Source of the DNA: Escherichia coli
GTDB lineage: Bacteria; Pseudomonadota; Gammaproteobacteria; Enterobacterales; Enterobacteriaceae
Direction: 5' to 3' (one strand)
Length of the DNA: 64,000 nt
Assembly: GCF_024700885.2 (NCBI RefSeq)
Contig: NZ_CP117016.1
Shown: one piece after another, positions 4,796 to 14,520 of the stretch
Layout: every line of letters starts with the position of its first letter
Numbering within the stretch: the stretch's first letter is position 1
Made by a program: the position numbers and the translations under genes
Notes under the pieces: generated by a model
What the model was told of the DNA's origin: nothing
Databases searched by the model: none
The model's input: the letters and a program-made list of their open reading frames with translations, nothing else

Positions 4796-5755
4796 TTGTT
4801 TCCATTTCGTCGTAACGTTCTTGCATTTGCCGCTCTGTTGGCGCTCTCCTCCCCCGTAATTGCTGGCAAGCTTGCCATCGTCATTGATGATTTTGGGTAT
4901 CGCCCGCACAACGAAAACCAGGTGCTGGCGATGCCTTCCGCTATCTCCGTCGCTGTATTACCCGATTCACCGCACGCCAGAGAGATGGCGACCAAAGCGC
5001 ATAACAGCGGTCACGAAGTGTTGATTCATCTACCGATGGCACCACTGAGTAAACAGCCGCTGGAGAAAAATACGCTACGCCCGGAGATGAGCAGCGACGA
5101 AATTGAGCGCATTATTCGTAGTGCGGTCAATAACGTGCCCTATGCCGTGGGGATCAACAACCACATGGGCAGCAAGATGACCTCTAACCTGTTTGGTATG
5201 CAGAAAGTGATGCAGGCGCTGGAGCGTTACAATCTTTACTTCCTCGACAGCGTAACCATCGGTAATACCCAGGCGATGCGCGCAGCGCAAGGCACTGGCG
5301 TGAAGGTGATCAAACGGAAAGTGTTCCTCGACGATTCGCAAAATGAAGCGGACATCCGTGTGCAATTCAATCGCGCAATTGACCTGGCACGTCGCAACGG
5401 TTCGACCATTGCCATTGGGCATCCTCACCCTTCAACGGTACGCGTGTTACAACAGATGGTTTATAACCTGCCGCCAGACATTACGCTGGTGAAAGCCAGC
5501 AGCTTGCTGAATGAACCGCAGGTTGATACGTCTACACCGCCGAAAAACACTGTGCCCGACACACCGCGTAATCCGTTCCGTGGCGTGAAGCTCTGCAAAC
5601 CGAAGAAACCGATAGAACCTGTTTATGCTAATCGCTTCTTTGAAGTATTAAGCGAAAGCATCAGCCAGAGCACGCTGATCGTTTACTTCCAGCATCAGTG
5701 GCAAGGCTGGGGCAAACAGCCTGAAGCGGCGAAGCTTAACGCTAGCGTAAATTAA
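4796..5755 (+). CDS. yibQ: divergent polysaccharide deacetylase family protein YibQ
   Basis: 319-aa ORF with signal peptide; matches YibQ; conserved position after envC. Confidence 0.9.
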
Positions 5756-6776
5756 AGGCGCTACGCGTAATGCGATGGTGCGACCGCGTTTTGTCGCGCC
5801 ATTGCCATAAGCGGAAAGACCACAGTAACGCCTGATAACCCACCTTCACGCTGCGCACATTGGTAATCAGGCGCTTATACATACCGGAAGTAAATATCTC
5901 GGCAATCATCCGTTGGCGGGTAATAATATCCGGCTCTTTGCGCACCGCATGGCAAACACGCAATGCTTCGTAAGTTATTTGCTGATGAAATTCCGGATAA
6001 ATCGTAATTTTGTCGGCATAATTTCGATTTAATTTCTCTAGCAGGCGGGTAATCTTAATATAGTGACGTTGATAATTAAGGTTTTTATTCCCTTGTCTGT
6101 TCAACCGACTCACTGACGTATTATGCAGATAATATTTATATAACGATTGCTCGGTATATCGCGCACGCAGCGCGTTAAACATGAATTCTGTTGTCCAGAC
6201 AATATCCTGATGATGTAATCCGGCAATAAATTTAATGTTATTTTTTACAATAACATCGCGGCGATAAATCCCCATCCAGACAACGTGAGTCCAACGGCGG
6301 GAAGAAAGCCCCATCCGCAACCAATCCGGGCCGGTTAATACGCCGGTTGAGCGAAGGCGATCGGTGGGGATGGATTGCCAGGTTTCTCCCGTTTCACGAA
6401 AACACCAGTCAGCGTTGCACTGCGCCACGTCGAGGTCGTCCTCTAACGCCATGGTCATCAGCGTTTCGTACATGGTGGGATACACCTCATCGTCAGCATC
6501 GACAAAAGCGACATATTTGCCCGTCGCCGCCTCGATCCCACGATTACGCGCCACCGATGCGCCAGCATTCGCCTGATGCAACAAACGAACGTGCGGATAG
6601 TTTTCTGCGTAATGCTTTGCTATTTCAACAGAATTATCCGTTGAACCATCGTTAATAATAATGATTTCCAGAGCAGTCCAGGTTTGCGTAATTAAAGATT
6701 CCATACACGTGCGGAAATCATCGCCCGCATTATATAACGGGATAATAACACTAAGTTTATTGGTGCTGTTCATCAT
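5742..6776 (-). CDS. waaH: family 2 glycosyltransferase WaaH (YibD)
   Basis: 344-aa ORF with GT2 motifs (IIPLYN...DGSTD...DADD); 3' end overlaps yibQ convergently. Confidence 0.9.
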
Positions 6777-7014: not shown

Positions 7015-8040
7015 TTAATCCCAGCTCAGGATAACTTTCCCGGACTGGCCCGAACGCATGGCGTCAAAGCCCTTCTGGAAATCATCGATAGAGAAACGAT
7101 GGGTAATGATCGGCGAAAGATCGAGGCCAGACTGAATCAGCGCCGCCATCTTGTACCAGGTTTCAAACATCTCACGACCGTAAATACCTTTAATGAACAA
7201 TCCTTTAAAGATCACTTTGGTCCAGTCGATAGACATATCAGACGGTGGAATACCCAGCATCGCAATACGACCGCCGTGGTTCATGGTGTCGAGCATGGTA
7301 CGAAACGCTGGCGGCGCACCGGACATTTCCAGACCGACATCAAAGCCTTCGGTCATGCCCAGTTCTGCCATCACATCATTGAGGTTCTCTTTAGCGACGT
7401 TAACCGCACGGGTGATACCCATTTTACGCGCCAACTCAAGGCGGTATTCGTTAACATCAGTAATCACCACGTTACGTGCACCAACGTGTTTCGCCACCGC
7501 CGCCGCCATAATACCAATCGGGCCTGCACCAGAGACCAGCACATCCTCGCCCACCAGATCAAACGACAGCGCGGTATGCACGGCGTTACCGAAGGGATCA
7601 AAAATGGAAGCCAGATCATCGGAGATATTGTCAGGGATTTTGAAGGCGTTGAACGCCGGAATCACCAGATACTCGGCGAAGCAGCCCGGACGGTTAACAC
7701 CGACGCCGATCGTGTTGCGGCACAGATGGGTACGACCGCCACGACAGTTGCGACAGTGACCGCAGGTGATATGGCCTTCGCCAGAAACGCGATCGCCAAT
7801 CTTGAAGCCTTTCACTTCCTGACCAATACCTACCACTTCACCGACATATTCATGGCCCACGACCATCGGCACCGGGATAGTTTTTTGCGACCACTCATCC
7901 CAGTTATAGATGTGAACGTCAGTCCCGCAGATGGCTGTTTTACGGATTTTAATCAGCAGATCGTTATGCCCGAGTTCCGGTACAGGAACGTCGGTCATCC
8001 AGATGCCCTCTTCCGCTTTCAGTTTGGATAACGCTTTCAT
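7015..8040 (-). CDS. tdh: L-threonine 3-dehydrogenase
   Basis: 341-aa zinc-dependent alcohol dehydrogenase family ORF matching Tdh. Confidence 0.95.
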
Positions 8041-8049
8041 CTCACATCC

Positions 8050-9246
8050 TCAGGCGATAACGCCCAGTTGTTTACCAATACGCGTGAATGCTTCTACTGC
8101 ACGCGTAATTTGCTCAGGGGTATGCGCCGCAGACATCTGGGTACGAATACGCGCCTGACCTTTCGGAACGACCGGATAGAAGAAACCGGTGACGTAAATC
8201 CCCTCTTTTTGCAGCTCACGAGCAAATTTCTGCGCTACTACCGCATCGCCAAGCATGACCGGAATAATGGCGTGATCGGCTCCCGCCAGGGTAAAGCCCG
8301 CCGCCGACATTTGCTCACGGAACTGACGCGCGTTCGCCCACAGACGGTCACGCAGCTCGCTACCCGCTTCGACCATCTCCAGCACTTTGATGGAAGCGGC
8401 AACAATGGCCGGTGCCAGCGAGTTGGAGAACAGGTACGGACGAGAACGCTGGCGCAGCCACTCAACCACTTCTTTGCGCGCCGCGGTATAACCACCAGAA
8501 GCCCCGCCCAGCGCTTTACCAAGCGTACCGGTGATAATATCGACCCGGCCCATCACATCGCAGTATTCATGGGAACCACGACCATTTTCACCGACAAAAC
8601 CGACCGCGTGGGAGTCGTCTACCATCACCAGGGCATCGTATTTATCTGCCAGATCGCAAACGCCCTTCAGGTTGGCAATCACGCCGTCCATTGAGAACAC
8701 ACCATCGGTGGCAATCAGCACATGACGCGCACCGGCTTCACGCGCTTCTTTCAGACGTGCTTCCAGCTCCTGCATATCGTTGTTGGCATAACGATAGCGT
8801 TTAGCTTTGCACAGACGCACACCATCAATAATAGACGCGTGGTTCAGTGCGTCGGAGATAATGGCGTCTTCCGCGCCCAACAGCGTTTCGAACAGGCCAC
8901 CGTTAGCATCAAAGCAGGAAGAGTAGAGAATCGCATCTTCCATCCCCAGGAAGGCCGCCAGTTTTTGTTCAAGCTCTTTATGGCTGTCCTGAGTGCCGCA
9001 AATAAAACGCACCGAAGCCATGCCGAAACCGTGAGAATCCATTCCCGCCTTTGCCGCCGCAATCAGATCCGGATGATTCGCCAGTCCGAGATAGTTATTG
9101 GCACAAAAGTTAATGACGTGGCTTCCATCAGCCACAGTGATATCTGCTTGCTGCGCAGACGTAATAATGCGCTCTTCTTTAAACAACCCTTCCGCCCGTG
9201 CGGTTTCCAGATCGTTGGTTAACTGCTGATAAAATTCTCCACGCAT
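8050..9246 (-). CDS. kbl: 2-amino-3-ketobutyrate CoA ligase (glycine C-acetyltransferase)
   Basis: 398-aa PLP-dependent ORF matching Kbl; immediately upstream of tdh, operon arrangement. Confidence 0.95.
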
Positions 9247-9459
9247 TGCGATTCTCCAGACAGGGCAAATTCCAGCACATATTACCCAAACTTATAGGTC
9301 GCGACGAGATGACGCGTTAACACTTCTGCAAAATTCAGGATAAATAACGTCCATCAATCTCACTTTTGGCGAATGGCTGAAGCCAACGCCGTGTAGTGAT
9401 ATGATAGAAGCATTCGTGTCTGAGATTGTCTCTGACTCCATAATTCGAAGGTTACAGTT

Positions 9460-10392
9460 ATGATCATCGTTACCGGCGGCGCGGGCTTTATCGGCAGCAA
9501 CATCGTTAAAGCCCTGAATGACAAAGGCATCACCGATATTCTGGTGGTGGATAACCTGAAAGACGGCACCAAGTTTGTGAACCTGGTGGATCTGGATATC
9601 GCGGACTATATGGATAAGGAAGACTTCCTGATCCAGATTATGGCTGGCGAAGAGTTCGGCGATGTCGAAGCGATTTTCCACGAAGGTGCGTGCTCTTCCA
9701 CCACCGAGTGGGACGGCAAGTATATGATGGATAACAACTATCAATACTCCAAAGAGCTGCTGCACTACTGCCTGGAGCGCGAAATCCCGTTCCTGTACGC
9801 TTCTTCTGCAGCCACTTACGGCGGTCGCACCTCCGACTTTATTGAATCCCGCGAATATGAAAAACCGTTGAATGTCTACGGTTACTCAAAATTCCTGTTT
9901 GATGAATATGTTCGCCAAATCCTGCCGGAAGCCAACTCGCAGATTGTTGGCTTCCGCTATTTCAACGTTTATGGACCGCGTGAAGGCCATAAAGGCAGCA
10001 TGGCGAGCGTCGCTTTCCATCTCAACACTCAGCTTAACAACGGTGAATCACCGAAGCTGTTCGAAGGTAGCGAGAACTTCAAACGTGACTTCGTCTATGT
10101 GGGCGACGTGGCAGATGTAAACCTGTGGTTCCTGGAAAATGGCGTTTCCGGCATCTTCAACCTCGGTACTGGTCGTGCGGAATCCTTCCAGGCGGTAGCC
10201 GATGCAACGCTTGCTTATCACAAGAAAGGCCAGATCGAATACATTCCGTTCCCGGATAAACTGAAAGGCCGCTATCAGGCGTTCACGCAGGCAGATCTGA
10301 CGAATCTGCGCGCGGCGGGTTATGACAAACCGTTCAAAACCGTTGCCGAAGGCGTAACGGAATATATGGCCTGGCTGAATCGCGACGCATAA
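9460..10392 (+). CDS. hldD: ADP-L-glycero-D-manno-heptose 6-epimerase
   Basis: 310-aa ORF, N-terminal [11 protein letters not shown]-binding motif; matches HldD/RfaD. Confidence 0.95.
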
Positions 10393-10401
10393 GAGCTCTG
10401 C

Positions 10402-11448
10402 ATGAAAATACTGGTGATCGGCCCGTCTTGGGTTGGCGACATGATGATGTCGCAAAGTCTCTATCGCACGCTCCAGGCGCGCTATCCCCAGGCGATAATC
10501 GATGTGATGGCACCGGCATGGTGCCGTCCATTATTATCGCGGATGCCGGAAGTTAACGAAGCTATCCCTATGCCTCTCGGTCACGGAGCGCTGGAAATCG
10601 GCGAACGCCGCAAACTGGGTCATAGCCTGCGTGAAAAGCGCTACGACCGCGCCTACATCTTACCCAACTCCTTCAAATCTGCATTAGTGCCTTTCTTCGC
10701 GGGTATTCCTCATCGCACCGGCTGGCGCGGCGAGATGCGCTACGGTTTACTCAACGATGTACGTGTGCTCGATAAAGAAGCCTGGCCGCTAATGGTGGAA
10801 CGCTATGTCGCGCTGGCCTATGACAAAGGCGTTATGCGCACAGCACAAGATCTGCCGCAACCATTGTTATGGCCGCAGTTGCAGGTGAGCGAAGGTGAAA
10901 AATCATATACCTGTAATCAATTTTCGCTTTCATCAGAACGTCCGATGATTGGCTTTTGCCCGGGTGCGGAGTTTGGTCCGGCAAAACGCTGGCCACACTA
11001 CCACTATGCAGAACTGGCAAAGCAACTGATTGATGAAGGTTATCAGGTGGTTCTGTTTGGCTCGGCGAAAGATCATGAAGCGGGCAATGAGATTCTTGCC
11101 GCTTTAAATACCGAGCAGCAGGCATGGTGCCGGAACCTGGCAGGGGAAACACAGCTTGATCAAGCGGTTATCCTGATTGCAGCCTGTAAAGCCATTGTCA
11201 CTAACGATTCTGGCCTGATGCACGTTGCGGCGGCGCTCAATCGTCCGCTGGTTGCCTTGTATGGTCCGAGTAGCCCGGACTTCACACCGCCGCTATCCCA
11301 TAAAGCACGCGTGATCCGCCTGATTACCGGCTATCACAAAGTGCGTAAAGGTGACGCTGCGGAGGGTTATCACCAGAGCTTGATCGACATTACTCCCCAG
11401 CGCGTACTGGAAGAACTCAACGCGCTATTGTTACAAGAGGAAACCTGA
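10402..11448 (+). CDS. waaF: LPS heptosyltransferase II
   Basis: 348-aa GT9 ORF matching WaaF. Confidence 0.93.
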   Translation: MKILVIGPSWVGDMMMSQSLYRTLQARYPQAIIDVMAPAWCRPLLSRMPEVNEAIPMPLGHGALEIGERRKLGHSLREKRYDRAYILPNSFKSALVPFFAGIPHRTGWRGEMRYGLLNDVRVLDKEAWPLMVERYVALAYDKGVMRTAQDLPQPLLWPQLQVSEGEKSYTCNQFSLSSERPMIGFCPGAEFGPAKRWPHYHYAELAKQLIDEGYQVVLFGSAKDHEAGNEILAALNTEQQAWCRNLAGETQLDQAVILIAACKAIVTNDSGLMHVAAALNRPLVALYGPSSPDFTPPLSHKARVIRLITGYHKVRKGDAAEGYHQSLIDITPQRVLEELNALLLQEET

Positions 11449-11451
11449 CGG

Positions 11452-12411
11452 ATGCGGGTTTTGATCGTTAAAACATCGTCGATGGGCGATGTTCTCCATA
11501 CGCTGCCCGCACTCACTGATGCCCAGCAGGCAATCCCAGGGATTAAGTTTGACTGGGTGGTGGAAGAAGGGTTCGCACAGATTCCTTCCTGGCACGCCGC
11601 CGTTGAGCGAGTTATTCCTGTGGCAATACGTCGCTGGCGTAAAGCCTGGTTCTCGGCCCCCATAAAAGCTGAACGGAAAGCGTTTCGTGAAGCGCTACAA
11701 GCAGAGAACTATGACGCAGTTATCGACGCTCAGGGGCTGGTAAAAAGCGCGGCGCTGGTGACGCGTCTGGCGCATGGCGTAAAGCATGGAATGGACTGGC
11801 AAACCGCTCGCGAACCTTTAGCCAGCCTGTTTTACAATCGTAAGCATCATATTGCAAAACAGCAGCACGCCGTAGAACGCACCCGCGAACTGTTTGCCAA
11901 AAGTCTGGGCTATAGCAAACCGCAAACCCAGGGCGATTATGCTATTGCACAGCATTTCTTGACGAACCTGCCTACAGATGCTGGCGAATATGCCGTATTT
12001 CTTCATGCGACGACCCGTGATGATAAACACTGGCCGGAAGAACACTGGCGAGATTTGATTGGTTTACTGGCAGATTCAGGAATACGGATTAAACTTCCGT
12101 GGGGCGCGCCGCATGAGGAAGAACGGGCGAAACGACTGGCGGAAGGATTTGCTTATGTTGAAGTATTGCCGAAGATGAGTCTGGAAGGCGTTGCCCGCGT
12201 GCTGGCTGGGGCTAAATTTGTAGTGTCGGTGGATACGGGGTTAAGCCATTTAACGGCGGCACTGGATAGACCGAATATCACGGTTTATGGACCAACCGAT
12301 CCGGGATTAATTGGCGGATATGGGAAGAATCAGGTGGTTTGTAGGGCTCCGCTAATGAATTTAAATAATTTAGAAGCAGCGGCTGTTTATAAAAAAATCA
12401 CATTAATTTAA
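11452..12411 (+). CDS. waaC: LPS heptosyltransferase I
   Basis: 319-aa GT9 ORF matching WaaC. Confidence 0.93.
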   Translation: MRVLIVKTSSMGDVLHTLPALTDAQQAIPGIKFDWVVEEGFAQIPSWHAAVERVIPVAIRRWRKAWFSAPIKAERKAFREALQAENYDAVIDAQGLVKSAALVTRLAHGVKHGMDWQTAREPLASLFYNRKHHIAKQQHAVERTRELFAKSLGYSKPQTQGDYAIAQHFLTNLPTDAGEYAVFLHATTRDDKHWPEEHWRDLIGLLADSGIRIKLPWGAPHEEERAKRLAEGFAYVEVLPKMSLEGVARVLAGAKFVVSVDTGLSHLTAALDRPNITVYGPTDPGLIGGYGKNQVVCRAPLMNLNNLEAAAVYKKITLI

Positions 12412-12416
12412 TAAAT

Positions 12417-12443
12417 AGTAAGTGGGCATTATACCCACTTACT
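12417..12443. terminator. perfect inverted repeat (agtaagtggg / cccacttact, 7-nt loop) between convergent waaC and the ligase gene
   Basis: Palindrome read directly from sequence in the 47-bp convergent intergenic gap; A/T-rich flanks on both sides. Confidence 0.5.
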
Positions 12444-12458
12444 TAGTCAACGCTTTTA

Positions 12459-13712
12459 TTATTGTGGTTCATTTTTACTCAAAAACGATATAGACAGGAA
12501 GAGGCACACAATCCACGATGCCGGTATTGGTTTAGCATGTGTAATGACATCACTAATGCCAAATAACATAATAGAAGCAGGGAAAACCAAGAGTATATAT
12601 TTTTTCTCTCGTATACAGTAATAGATCATTGCAACATAGAACATAATAAGAACAAGAAGACCAATTTTTCCTTTCGTGGAAAGAGATTCCACAATTTCGT
12701 TATGCATATGTACATCAAGGAATAATAAAGCTCCACTATAAATATTATTTTCTGCACTTAATGCTTTTATCTTTTCAGCACGCTGCTCAAGAGATTGCCA
12801 ATTAAAACCATCAGGACTTCCTTTAATTCCTGCATTAACCATTGCAAAACGTGCTCCGACCGAGGATTGACTGTTATTTTTTGTAGCATATGAAATAACA
12901 TCAGCTTTTAATGAATTAATTCGCCTATCAATTTCCTTATTAAATATCAAACCACAAGCAAGTAGCAATATAAAAACACCACTCAATCCTTTAAATAAAA
13001 ACACTTTTTGATCACGATGCTGAAGAAATAATATGACCATAATCATAAGTGGGAATGTGAAAATTGCCGCACGCGTTCCTGTCATCATTACTGCTGCAAA
13101 GCTTAAAGCAAAGTTAGCATAAAATAGAAACCATTTATATTTCGATTGCATTTTTATGAATACAATTGAAGAATATAAAGTTGTAAATGTAATCACATAA
13201 GCCGCAATAGTCGCTGCCCCCATCTGACCAATATTCCCATTCATGGCGGAGAGGGGAATGCGGTCTGCATGCAAATATATCCCTTGATAATATGCTCTAC
13301 ATAGCATGATTATTTGAACTAAGATAGCTGAAATAAAATGTAGTTTTTCATTTTGCCTGAATTTATTTTTACTTAGTAATAAAAATGTCAACGAGCTAAA
13401 TACTAATAGTTTTCCAGACTCAAGGTAGCCTCGATAAGCATTTCTATATACTACATCTTCTGTTTTATAAAATTCATACCATATAAGGTTCATTGCACCC
13501 AAAAGAAGTAAACCAAGAATTAATATAATGACATTTTTATTATAATTGTGCTTTTTATTTACAATTAATAAGAAAAGAGAAAATGCACCTGTCGCATTAA
13601 TTATTTTAGTGGTGATATTAAGATCAATTGGCACAAACAACAAACCGATTAAATACAATAAAAAAATAAAATTACAGCTATTATTTCGAAATTGCTCAAT
13701 TTTTACTTCCAC
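12459..13712 (-). CDS. waaL: O-antigen ligase (WaaL family), polytopic membrane protein
   Basis: 417-aa very hydrophobic AT-rich ORF at the distal end of the minus-strand outer-core operon; the position WaaL occupies in R1/R3/R4 core types. Confidence 0.8.
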   Translation of the reverse strand: MEVKIEQFRNNSCNFIFLLYLIGLLFVPIDLNITTKIINATGAFSLFLLIVNKKHNYNKNVIILILGLLLLGAMNLIWYEFYKTEDVVYRNAYRGYLESGKLLVFSSLTFLLLSKNKFRQNEKLHFISAILVQIIMLCRAYYQGIYLHADRIPLSAMNGNIGQMGAATIAAYVITFTTLYSSIVFIKMQSKYKWFLFYANFALSFAAVMMTGTRAAIFTFPLMIMVILFLQHRDQKVFLFKGLSGVFILLLACGLIFNKEIDRRINSLKADVISYATKNNSQSSVGARFAMVNAGIKGSPDGFNWQSLEQRAEKIKALSAENNIYSGALLFLDVHMHNEIVESLSTKGKIGLLVLIMFYVAMIYYCIREKKYILLVFPASIMLFGISDVITHAKPIPASWIVCLFLSISFLSKNEPQ

Positions 13713-13746
13713 GTTAATATCTCACAACAAATTGAAATTAACAATC

Positions 13747-14520
13747 TCATTTCAAAAGAGAAAAAAAAGCCACCTTTATCCAGGAGCGTATAAACTTCAT
13801 TCTTTTCTGAAGCCTTGTTCTAGGTTGTTTTTTTTCCGATGTTAATAGCCTTTCACTTTCAAGATGACTATTAAACTCATTTAAAATAGGATGTAATATT
13901 ATTTCGTCTAAATAAAACTCTTTTATAATATTATGTTGATGCATTAACTTCCAGCTATCAGCTCGATAGGTGCCATAATCCTTTGTCAATTTGAGCAACT
14001 TTTGTGCCATATCTTTATTCATCAAATATGAACATGTACGACGAATTTTATTTTTATTGAAATTAACACGCCGAAAAGTACAAGTACTTACCTTAACTTT
14101 ACTAAAAAGGCTTTGCCCCAATACCGGATAATCATGTAATCCTTTCTGTCCTCCAAGCAAATACAAATTATTATGTTTTAACTTGTCTTTTTCAGGAAGA
14201 TTAAAATATTGCAGAAATTTTTTAAATTTCTCATTGACGATAACATCATCCTCGAGAATGACTGCCCATTCTATATTTTTATCTATCATATCCTTATATA
14301 TAAGCTGATGACTTAATGTACAAGCAATTTCTCCATCAGTCATTTCTGCGCCGACACCACTTAATCTCATTTTATCAATAATTTCTTTATTTTGAGGGTC
14401 TTTAGCATCTATGGCATCAAAAAAATCAAAATTAATATTTAATCGATGAAAAACATCATTTATTTTATTTCTTCGCTCAATATCTCTTTTAAGTGAGACA
14501 ATATAAATGGGCAGGTTCAT
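13747..14520 (-). CDS. outer-core beta-glycosyltransferase, GT25 (Lic2A/LgtB-like) family; WaaV/WaaX position
   Basis: 257-aa ORF beginning IYIVSLKRDIERR, typical GT25 N-terminus; cannot decide WaaV (R1) versus WaaX (R4) without alignment. Confidence 0.7.
   Translation of the reverse strand: MNLPIYIVSLKRDIERRNKINDVFHRLNINFDFFDAIDAKDPQNKEIIDKMRLSGVGAEMTDGEIACTLSHQLIYKDMIDKNIEWAVILEDDVIVNEKFKKFLQYFNLPEKDKLKHNNLYLLGGQKGLHDYPVLGQSLFSKVKVSTCTFRRVNFNKNKIRRTCSYLMNKDMAQKLLKLTKDYGTYRADSWKLMHQHNIIKEFYLDEIILHPILNEFNSHLESERLLTSEKKQPRTRLQKRMKFIRSWIKVAFFSLLK

Follow-up and report, generated by a model that had tools for sequence, protein, structure and literature searches.

A 213-bp kbl–hldD interval without htrL is the majority arrangement among complete Escherichia coli genomes

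Results

The stretch of E. coli DNA analysed here (hereafter the window, 64 kb) carries the kbl side of a waa (LPS core) locus. The kbl gene, which encodes glycine C-acetyltransferase and is the first gene of the kbl–tdh operon, occupies positions 8050–9246 on the minus strand, and tdh lies behind it (7015–8040, minus strand, from the ORF list). The kbl start codon, CAT on the strand read, is at 9244–9246, and the gene as a whole is 98.3% identical to K-12 kbl. On the plus strand, hldD (rfaD; 9460–10392), waaF (10402–11448) and waaC (11452–12411) form the inner-core operon (9460–12411), which is directed away from kbl. The kbl, hldD, waaF and waaC assignments come from the ORF list together with the annotation of strain 1190. 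Two genes beyond kbl, waaH of EDL933 (O157:H7), for UDP-glucuronate:LPS(HepIII) glycosyltransferase, is annotated as a frameshifted pseudogene (locus L005, 12221–13256); its counterpart in the window is an intact 344-codon ORF at 5742–6776.

Between the start codons of kbl and hldD (ATG at 9460) lie 213 bp, positions 9247–9459, to which we assign no strand. An earlier note on this DNA had given that distance and had claimed that the interval holds no gene. The sequence, the ORF list and the 1190 annotation all agree on the distance, and the second claim was borne out by homology searches. A tblastn search with K-12 HtrL found no HtrL-like coding sequence in the whole 64-kb window (the top match had E = 2.7 over 36 residues), and no credible ORF, small ones included, lies within 9247–9459. 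Nor was a decayed htrL found: a sensitive blastn of the K-12 interval against the window matched the two flanks only. Within the 213 bp, no sigma-70 or terminator consensus sites were found at the scan threshold, and no Rfam family matched at E ≤ 1. A 20-codon ORF at 9401–9463 runs from within a −10-like TATGAT to a stop codon that overlaps the hldD ATG; its frame is broken in the K-12 allele by a 1-bp length difference, and the ORF is probably fortuitous.

Two complete chromosomes match parts of the window at 100% identity: that of strain 1190 (NZ_CP023386) over positions 8000–10700, with no gene annotated between kbl and rfaD, and that of MLI114 over positions 9000–14520. These identities, and the thousands of independent assemblies that have the same junction (see below), make it extremely improbable that the short interval arose from an error of sequencing or assembly.

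The outer-core genes begin directly after waaC. There, waaL (12459–13712) is annotated on the minus strand, opposite to hldD–waaF–waaC, as expected for an R4 locus, in which waaL closes the waaQ operon; this arrangement is also that of R1. The next gene is the GT25 gene waaX (13747–14520, minus strand); waaX, for a beta-1,4-galactosyltransferase, is specific to R4, where it neighbours waaW. The published typing primers R4-F and R1R4-R, which give a 380-bp product for R4 (PMC13293308), match the window exactly in silico at 14332 (plus strand) and 14692 (minus strand), with the expected 380-bp product. Judged by these genes and primer sites, the window carries an R4 outer-core waa locus, and the waaL is of the R4 type. 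Gene order had first suggested R1. We rejected this assignment because the match to CFT073, an R1 strain, stops at the end of waaC, because waaL is followed by a GT25 gene, and because the R4 primers fit.

The earlier note had also placed htrL of K-12 between kbl and rfaD/hldD, and had proposed an alignment of the interval with K-12 and other core-type strains. The K-12 gene does sit there, and not elsewhere: in MG1655, htrL (yibB, b3618) is an 858-bp gene on the minus strand, within the 1435 bp that separate the start codons of kbl and rfaD. The alignment that we made covered the window, K-12, EDL933, CFT073, an R2 strain, an htrL-bearing R4 strain, and htrL loci from other genera. It resolves the interval into two conserved blocks, which are separated by a 22-bp spacer in the window and by a 1243-bp cassette in K-12. 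The breakpoints of the difference between htrL-less and htrL-bearing loci fall at 9350/9351 and 9372/9373.

The kbl-proximal block (9247–9350, minus strand, 104 bp) ends in TAAATAACG. Whether or not htrL is present, E. coli genomes are 98–100% identical over this block, the R2 haplotype (77.9%) being the exception, and the block is recognisable, with the same end point, in Citrobacter loci. This block is presumably the kbl–tdh promoter/regulatory region. The spacer (9351–9372, no strand assigned), CCATCAATCTCACTTTTGGCGA, marks the site of the htrL cassette in htrL-bearing strains. The hldD-proximal block (9373–9459, plus strand, 87 bp) begins ATGGCTGAAG and is present in the window in its htrL-less allelic form; a version of it is conserved in every Escherichia and Citrobacter locus aligned. 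In the window the two blocks are thus continuous but for the spacer, with no cassette and with start codons 213 bp apart. The same 213-bp spacing is found in CFT073 (R1), strain 1283 (R2) and AVS0051 (K-12 type). In strain 1283 (L003, 12461–13521), rfaD is annotated as 981 nt as against 933, and the rfaD–rfaF gap is 79 bp as against 9 bp. An extra 118 bp in R2-type matches was considered as part of the kbl–hldD interval, and was rejected as such because it sits at the hldD–waaF boundary, where the longer rfaD and the wider gap account for it.

The K-12 cassette (locus L001, 7657–8899) has 35.6% G+C, against 48.2% in the window. It contains htrL together with a promoter region of its own, a terminator-like hairpin, and an AT-rich stretch upstream. 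Genomic SELEX has reported binding of RpoD holoenzyme and H-NS to the K-12 htrL/hldD spacer, where promoters were also predicted (PMC3946193). The motifs of that study map to L001 8699–8744, a position inside the cassette that lies approximately 260 bp upstream of hldD, and nothing in the window corresponds to them.

We then asked how common each arrangement is. We searched 5426 complete E. coli genomes, and htrL matched in 1958 of them (36%); all matches were chromosomal, with a median of one copy and a maximum of two per matching genome. The uninterrupted htrL-less junction, scored when window positions 9290–9470 were covered to at least 80% in one piece, was present in 3465 (64%), CFT073 among them. 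These numbers are counts of assemblies rather than population frequencies, because the set is biased towards certain clones and includes many genomes of O157:H7 and of laboratory K-12. In 485 of the 3465, the junction is diverged, with approximately 84% identity to the window over the junction query; this form belongs to the R2 haplotype and has the same 213-bp architecture. The absence of htrL, correctly reported in the earlier note, is therefore ordinary: it is the K-12 arrangement that is the minority state.

Added together, the two classes account for 5423 of the 5424 genomes matching the region, so that essentially no genome has both htrL and an uninterrupted junction, and htrL has not simply been relocated in the htrL-less genomes. 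Relocation would not be without a precedent in the family, as Salmonella Saintpaul and one assembly labelled E. coli have a divergent HtrL paralogue near icd. That paralogue, however, gave no megablast match in the 5426 complete genomes, strain 1190 included, and the window encodes no HtrL-like sequence. We consider it extremely unlikely that htrL is present in this genome but has moved elsewhere.

The hldD-proximal block exists in two forms. Both keep the element GGCTGAAG (9375–9382 in the window) and an extended −10-like element, TGATATGAT (9397–9405), with the pattern TGnTATGAT, which makes the block a candidate promoter. Over approximately 35 bp at this putative hldD −10 region (window 9373–9409; L001 8900–8937; also in L008–L012) the two forms differ sharply and track the presence of htrL. 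The htrL-less form, GGCTGAAG-CCAACGCCGTGTAGTGATATGA-TAGAAG, was found in all htrL-less E. coli examined, that is, in the R4 window, in CFT073 (R1), in strain 1283 (R2) and in AVS0051 (K-12 type); in the alignment, the window block reads …GGCTGAAGCCAACGCCGTGTAGTGATATGATAGAAG…, as do those of CFT073 and strain 1283. The htrL-linked form, GGCTGAAG-GGATTCGGATGTGATGGTATGATTACAGA, was found in every htrL-bearing locus aligned: K-12, EDL933, ETEC1738 (R4), Escherichia sp. MOD1-EC7003, Citrobacter sp. R56, C. amalonaticus, C. freundii and ‘Enterobacter sp. Ag1’. Between the window and K-12, 72 of the 88 positions in the block agree; between K-12 and the htrL-linked blocks of Citrobacter and Escherichia sp., 82–86 of 88 do, and between K-12 and ‘Enterobacter sp. 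Ag1’, 75 of 88. The htrL-linked form, common to E. coli and Citrobacter, therefore looks like a trans-species haplotype.

These comparisons bear on a scenario of recent deletion, in which this strain, or the lineage immediately around it, would have lost htrL from a K-12-like state. An ancestor with the cassette is conceivable, given that htrL occupies the exact site in K-12, R3 strains and Citrobacter, and the kbl-proximal 104 bp are 99% identical to those of K-12. Nevertheless, the block on the other side of the breakpoint is more divergent from K-12 than is that of Citrobacter, 3465 genomes, from four core types, have the same kind of junction, these junctions have diverged among themselves to approximately 84% identity, and the window retains no htrL remnant. 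That the htrL-less allele is farther from the htrL-linked allele of E. coli than Citrobacter is excludes a recent simple deletion and indicates an old dimorphism; we regard a recent loss as very unlikely.

The outer-core genes, which begin 3 kb away, allowed us to compare htrL state with core type. Core-type totals are the numbers of genomes in which megablast covered at least 80% of a segment containing waaL and its neighbour, and do not represent full typing; they sum to 5420. Co-occurrence with htrL was counted with chimeric queries (htrL cassette, a piece of waaF and a type-specific part), which reach 80% coverage only if htrL and the type occur together. All 1364 R3 genomes carry htrL, as do 451 of the 1032 genomes of the K-12 type (581 lack it). 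A combined query for R1 and R4 matched 140 genomes, of which the best three were R4 and the other matches listed were R1, giving htrL in about 137 of 1833 R1 genomes and in about 3 of 690 R4 genomes (about 687 without). The three chimeric counts (1364, 451 and 140) sum to 1955, which by subtraction leaves at most 3 htrL-bearing genomes for R2 (501 genomes). The number of htrL-less genomes implied by the core-type counts is 3462, compared with the 3465 observed.

We conclude that htrL state is strongly, but incompletely, linked to outer-core type, and that the htrL-less state of the window is typical for R4 (approximately 99.6% of R4 genomes). A strict linkage is rejected by the K-12 type, with its 451 and 581 genomes, and by the rare htrL-bearing R1 and R4 recombinants. 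Also rejected was the idea that htrL tracks the orientation of waaL, being present when waaL belongs to the hldD operon, since R2 has waaL in that operon and lacks htrL. Two of the less usual combinations were read directly: AVS0051 has K-12-type genes and the 213-bp junction, and ETEC1738 has R4 genes plus yibB. The GT8 gene at the waaT position of ETEC1738 (L006, 11175–12170) contains an internal stop, and the outer core of this strain may be truncated as a result.

Beyond E. coli, a scan of one genome per species with exact HtrL peptide words from K-12 returned 11 loci, with MOD1-EC7003 the sole match in Escherichia; a scan of this design is weak evidence for absence in other species. As in K-12, htrL lies between kbl and hldD in MOD1-EC7003, in four Citrobacter genomes and in ‘Enterobacter sp. 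Ag1’, and the full-length proteins encoded at this site outside Escherichia are 79–82% identical to K-12 HtrL. In a Providencia sp. MAG, kbl and hldD are neighbours, 268 bp apart, and htrL is missing from the gap. A homologue with 51% identity instead follows directly on hldD–waaF–waaC as the fourth gene of the row, in the same direction (L015, 887–4846), the position of waaL in K-12, and this placement supports a role of the HtrL family in LPS core synthesis. In Salmonella LT2, kbl is presumably followed directly by rfaD. Salmonella YibB homologues are only 53–61% identical to K-12 HtrL.

The icd-linked paralogue (59–61% identity to K-12 HtrL) adjoins icd in Salmonella Saintpaul and in GCA_900448175.1, the assembly labelled E. 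coli (L019, 6001–6975; L020, 6001–6858). Its neighbours are genes with PseudoU_synth_2, NUDIX and tRNA methyltransferase domains, and an IS1 transposase lies beside the GCA_900448175.1 copy. A 2.6-kb contig labelled ‘MAG: Bacillota bacterium’ (L007, JAEWTL010000099.1) encodes HtrL, HldD and the beginning of WaaF with 99–100% protein identity to E. coli; it is almost certainly E. coli contamination of the bin.

The species data bear on polarity, that is, on whether the htrL-less junction is ancestral in E. coli, the cassette having been acquired horizontally and spread by recombination. We give this polarity, which is compatible with an old dimorphism, slightly less than an even chance. It is favoured by the low G+C of the cassette (35.6% against 48% in the window), by the adjacency of kbl and hldD in Providencia, with its HtrL homologue after waaC, by MOD1-EC7003 being the only Escherichia match in the one-genome-per-species scan, and by the single Salmonella YibB homologue examined in its genomic context, which is a paralogue of 61% identity located near icd rather than at kbl–rfaD. 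However, several Citrobacter species have htrL at this very site, next to the htrL-linked form of the hldD promoter, which favours antiquity; their protein identity of approximately 80% would be compatible with vertical inheritance, and the reliance of the scan on exact K-12 peptide words makes absence in other species weak evidence.

The family to which HtrL belongs is named HtrL_YibB in Pfam (PF09612), ‘protein YibB’ in NCBIfam and ‘WlaTC/HtrL family glycosyltransferase’ by PGAP, and its members are located in LPS/LOS core loci of E. coli, Citrobacter, Providencia and Acinetobacter. The predicted structure of HtrL is a confident model with a Rossmann-like GT-A glycosyltransferase fold, and the invariant residues include D145 (in a WxDFG motif), D231 and D232. 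HtrL is an uncharacterised protein predicted to have a GT-A glycosyltransferase-like fold. Our search of the literature returned nothing specific on the function of htrL/yibB or on a link between htrL and core type, and no biochemical data on HtrL.

Discussion

We are confident that an old dimorphism for the presence or absence of htrL exists on the kbl side of the waa locus and that the window has its common, htrL-less allele. The sequence difference and the genome counts behind the dimorphism were observed directly. The htrL-less allele consists of the kbl–tdh block (104 bp) and the hldD–waaFC block (87 bp) joined by the 22-bp spacer, and would form a compact 213-bp divergent promoter region for kbl–tdh and hldD–waaFC, if the blocks have the promoter roles that we infer. 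The other allele has the 1243-bp AT-rich cassette exactly between the blocks, bringing with it htrL, a terminator-like hairpin and, in K-12, the AT-rich stretch bound by sigma-70 and H-NS. Both alleles have presumably been inherited, and exchanged by homologous recombination together with neighbouring waa genes; such co-exchange would account for a linkage to outer-core type that is strong but incomplete.

A functional coupling is a less likely reading of the same association. HtrL would then be an active GT-A glycosyltransferase that matters for particular core chemotypes, the presence of htrL in every R3 genome (1364), as against 44% of the K-12 type and under 8% of R1, R2 and R4, would reflect this coupling and not linkage alone, and expression of hldD–waaFC would be rewired in the htrL-less allele because it lacks the AT-rich, H-NS-bound upstream region. 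If this were so, the R4 strain of the window would differ from K-12 in LPS decoration and in the regulation of heptose supply. We think it unlikely.

The htrL-less junction represents what most genomes have at a well-sampled locus, the ordinary allele for a known accessory gene, and is no anomaly. In practice, htrL state can be predicted from LPS core type, as htrL accompanies R3 without exception, occurs in about half of the K-12-type genomes and is rare in R1, R2 and R4. K-12 is a poor reference for the kbl–hldD interval and for the region upstream of hldD. The co-occurrence of htrL with R3, the two old hldD upstream alleles and the predicted GT-A-like fold of HtrL are of modest specialist interest.

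The window can be set against three known arrangements. With kbl–htrL–rfaD of K-12 MG1655 (b3617–b3619) it shares the flanking genes, their divergent orientation, the kbl-proximal 104 bp (99%) and the last ∼50 bp before the hldD ATG. MG1655 differs in having the 1243-bp htrL cassette where the window has 22 bp, in carrying the other allele over the ∼35 bp around the hldD −10 region, and in having, within the cassette, a sigma-70/H-NS site and predicted promoters (PMC3946193) that are without counterpart in the window. CFT073 (R1) shares the 213-bp interval without htrL, with kbl- and hldD-proximal blocks that are 100% and 96.6% identical to those of the window, and has hldD–waaF–waaC followed by waaL on the opposite strand; its 22-bp spacer differs at six positions, and its outer core is of the R1 type (GT2 waaV, R1 waaL) rather than R4 (GT25 waaX, R4 waaL). 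The Citrobacter kbl–htrL–hldD loci (L009, L011, L012 and L014) share the flanking genes and the conserved kbl and hldD regulatory blocks. They differ in encoding a member of the HtrL_YibB family, of which the window encodes none (79–82% identity to the K-12 protein for full-length matches, 85% for a partial match in L014), and in having the htrL-linked hldD block, so that the window has neither the gene nor the form of the block that accompanies it in these loci.
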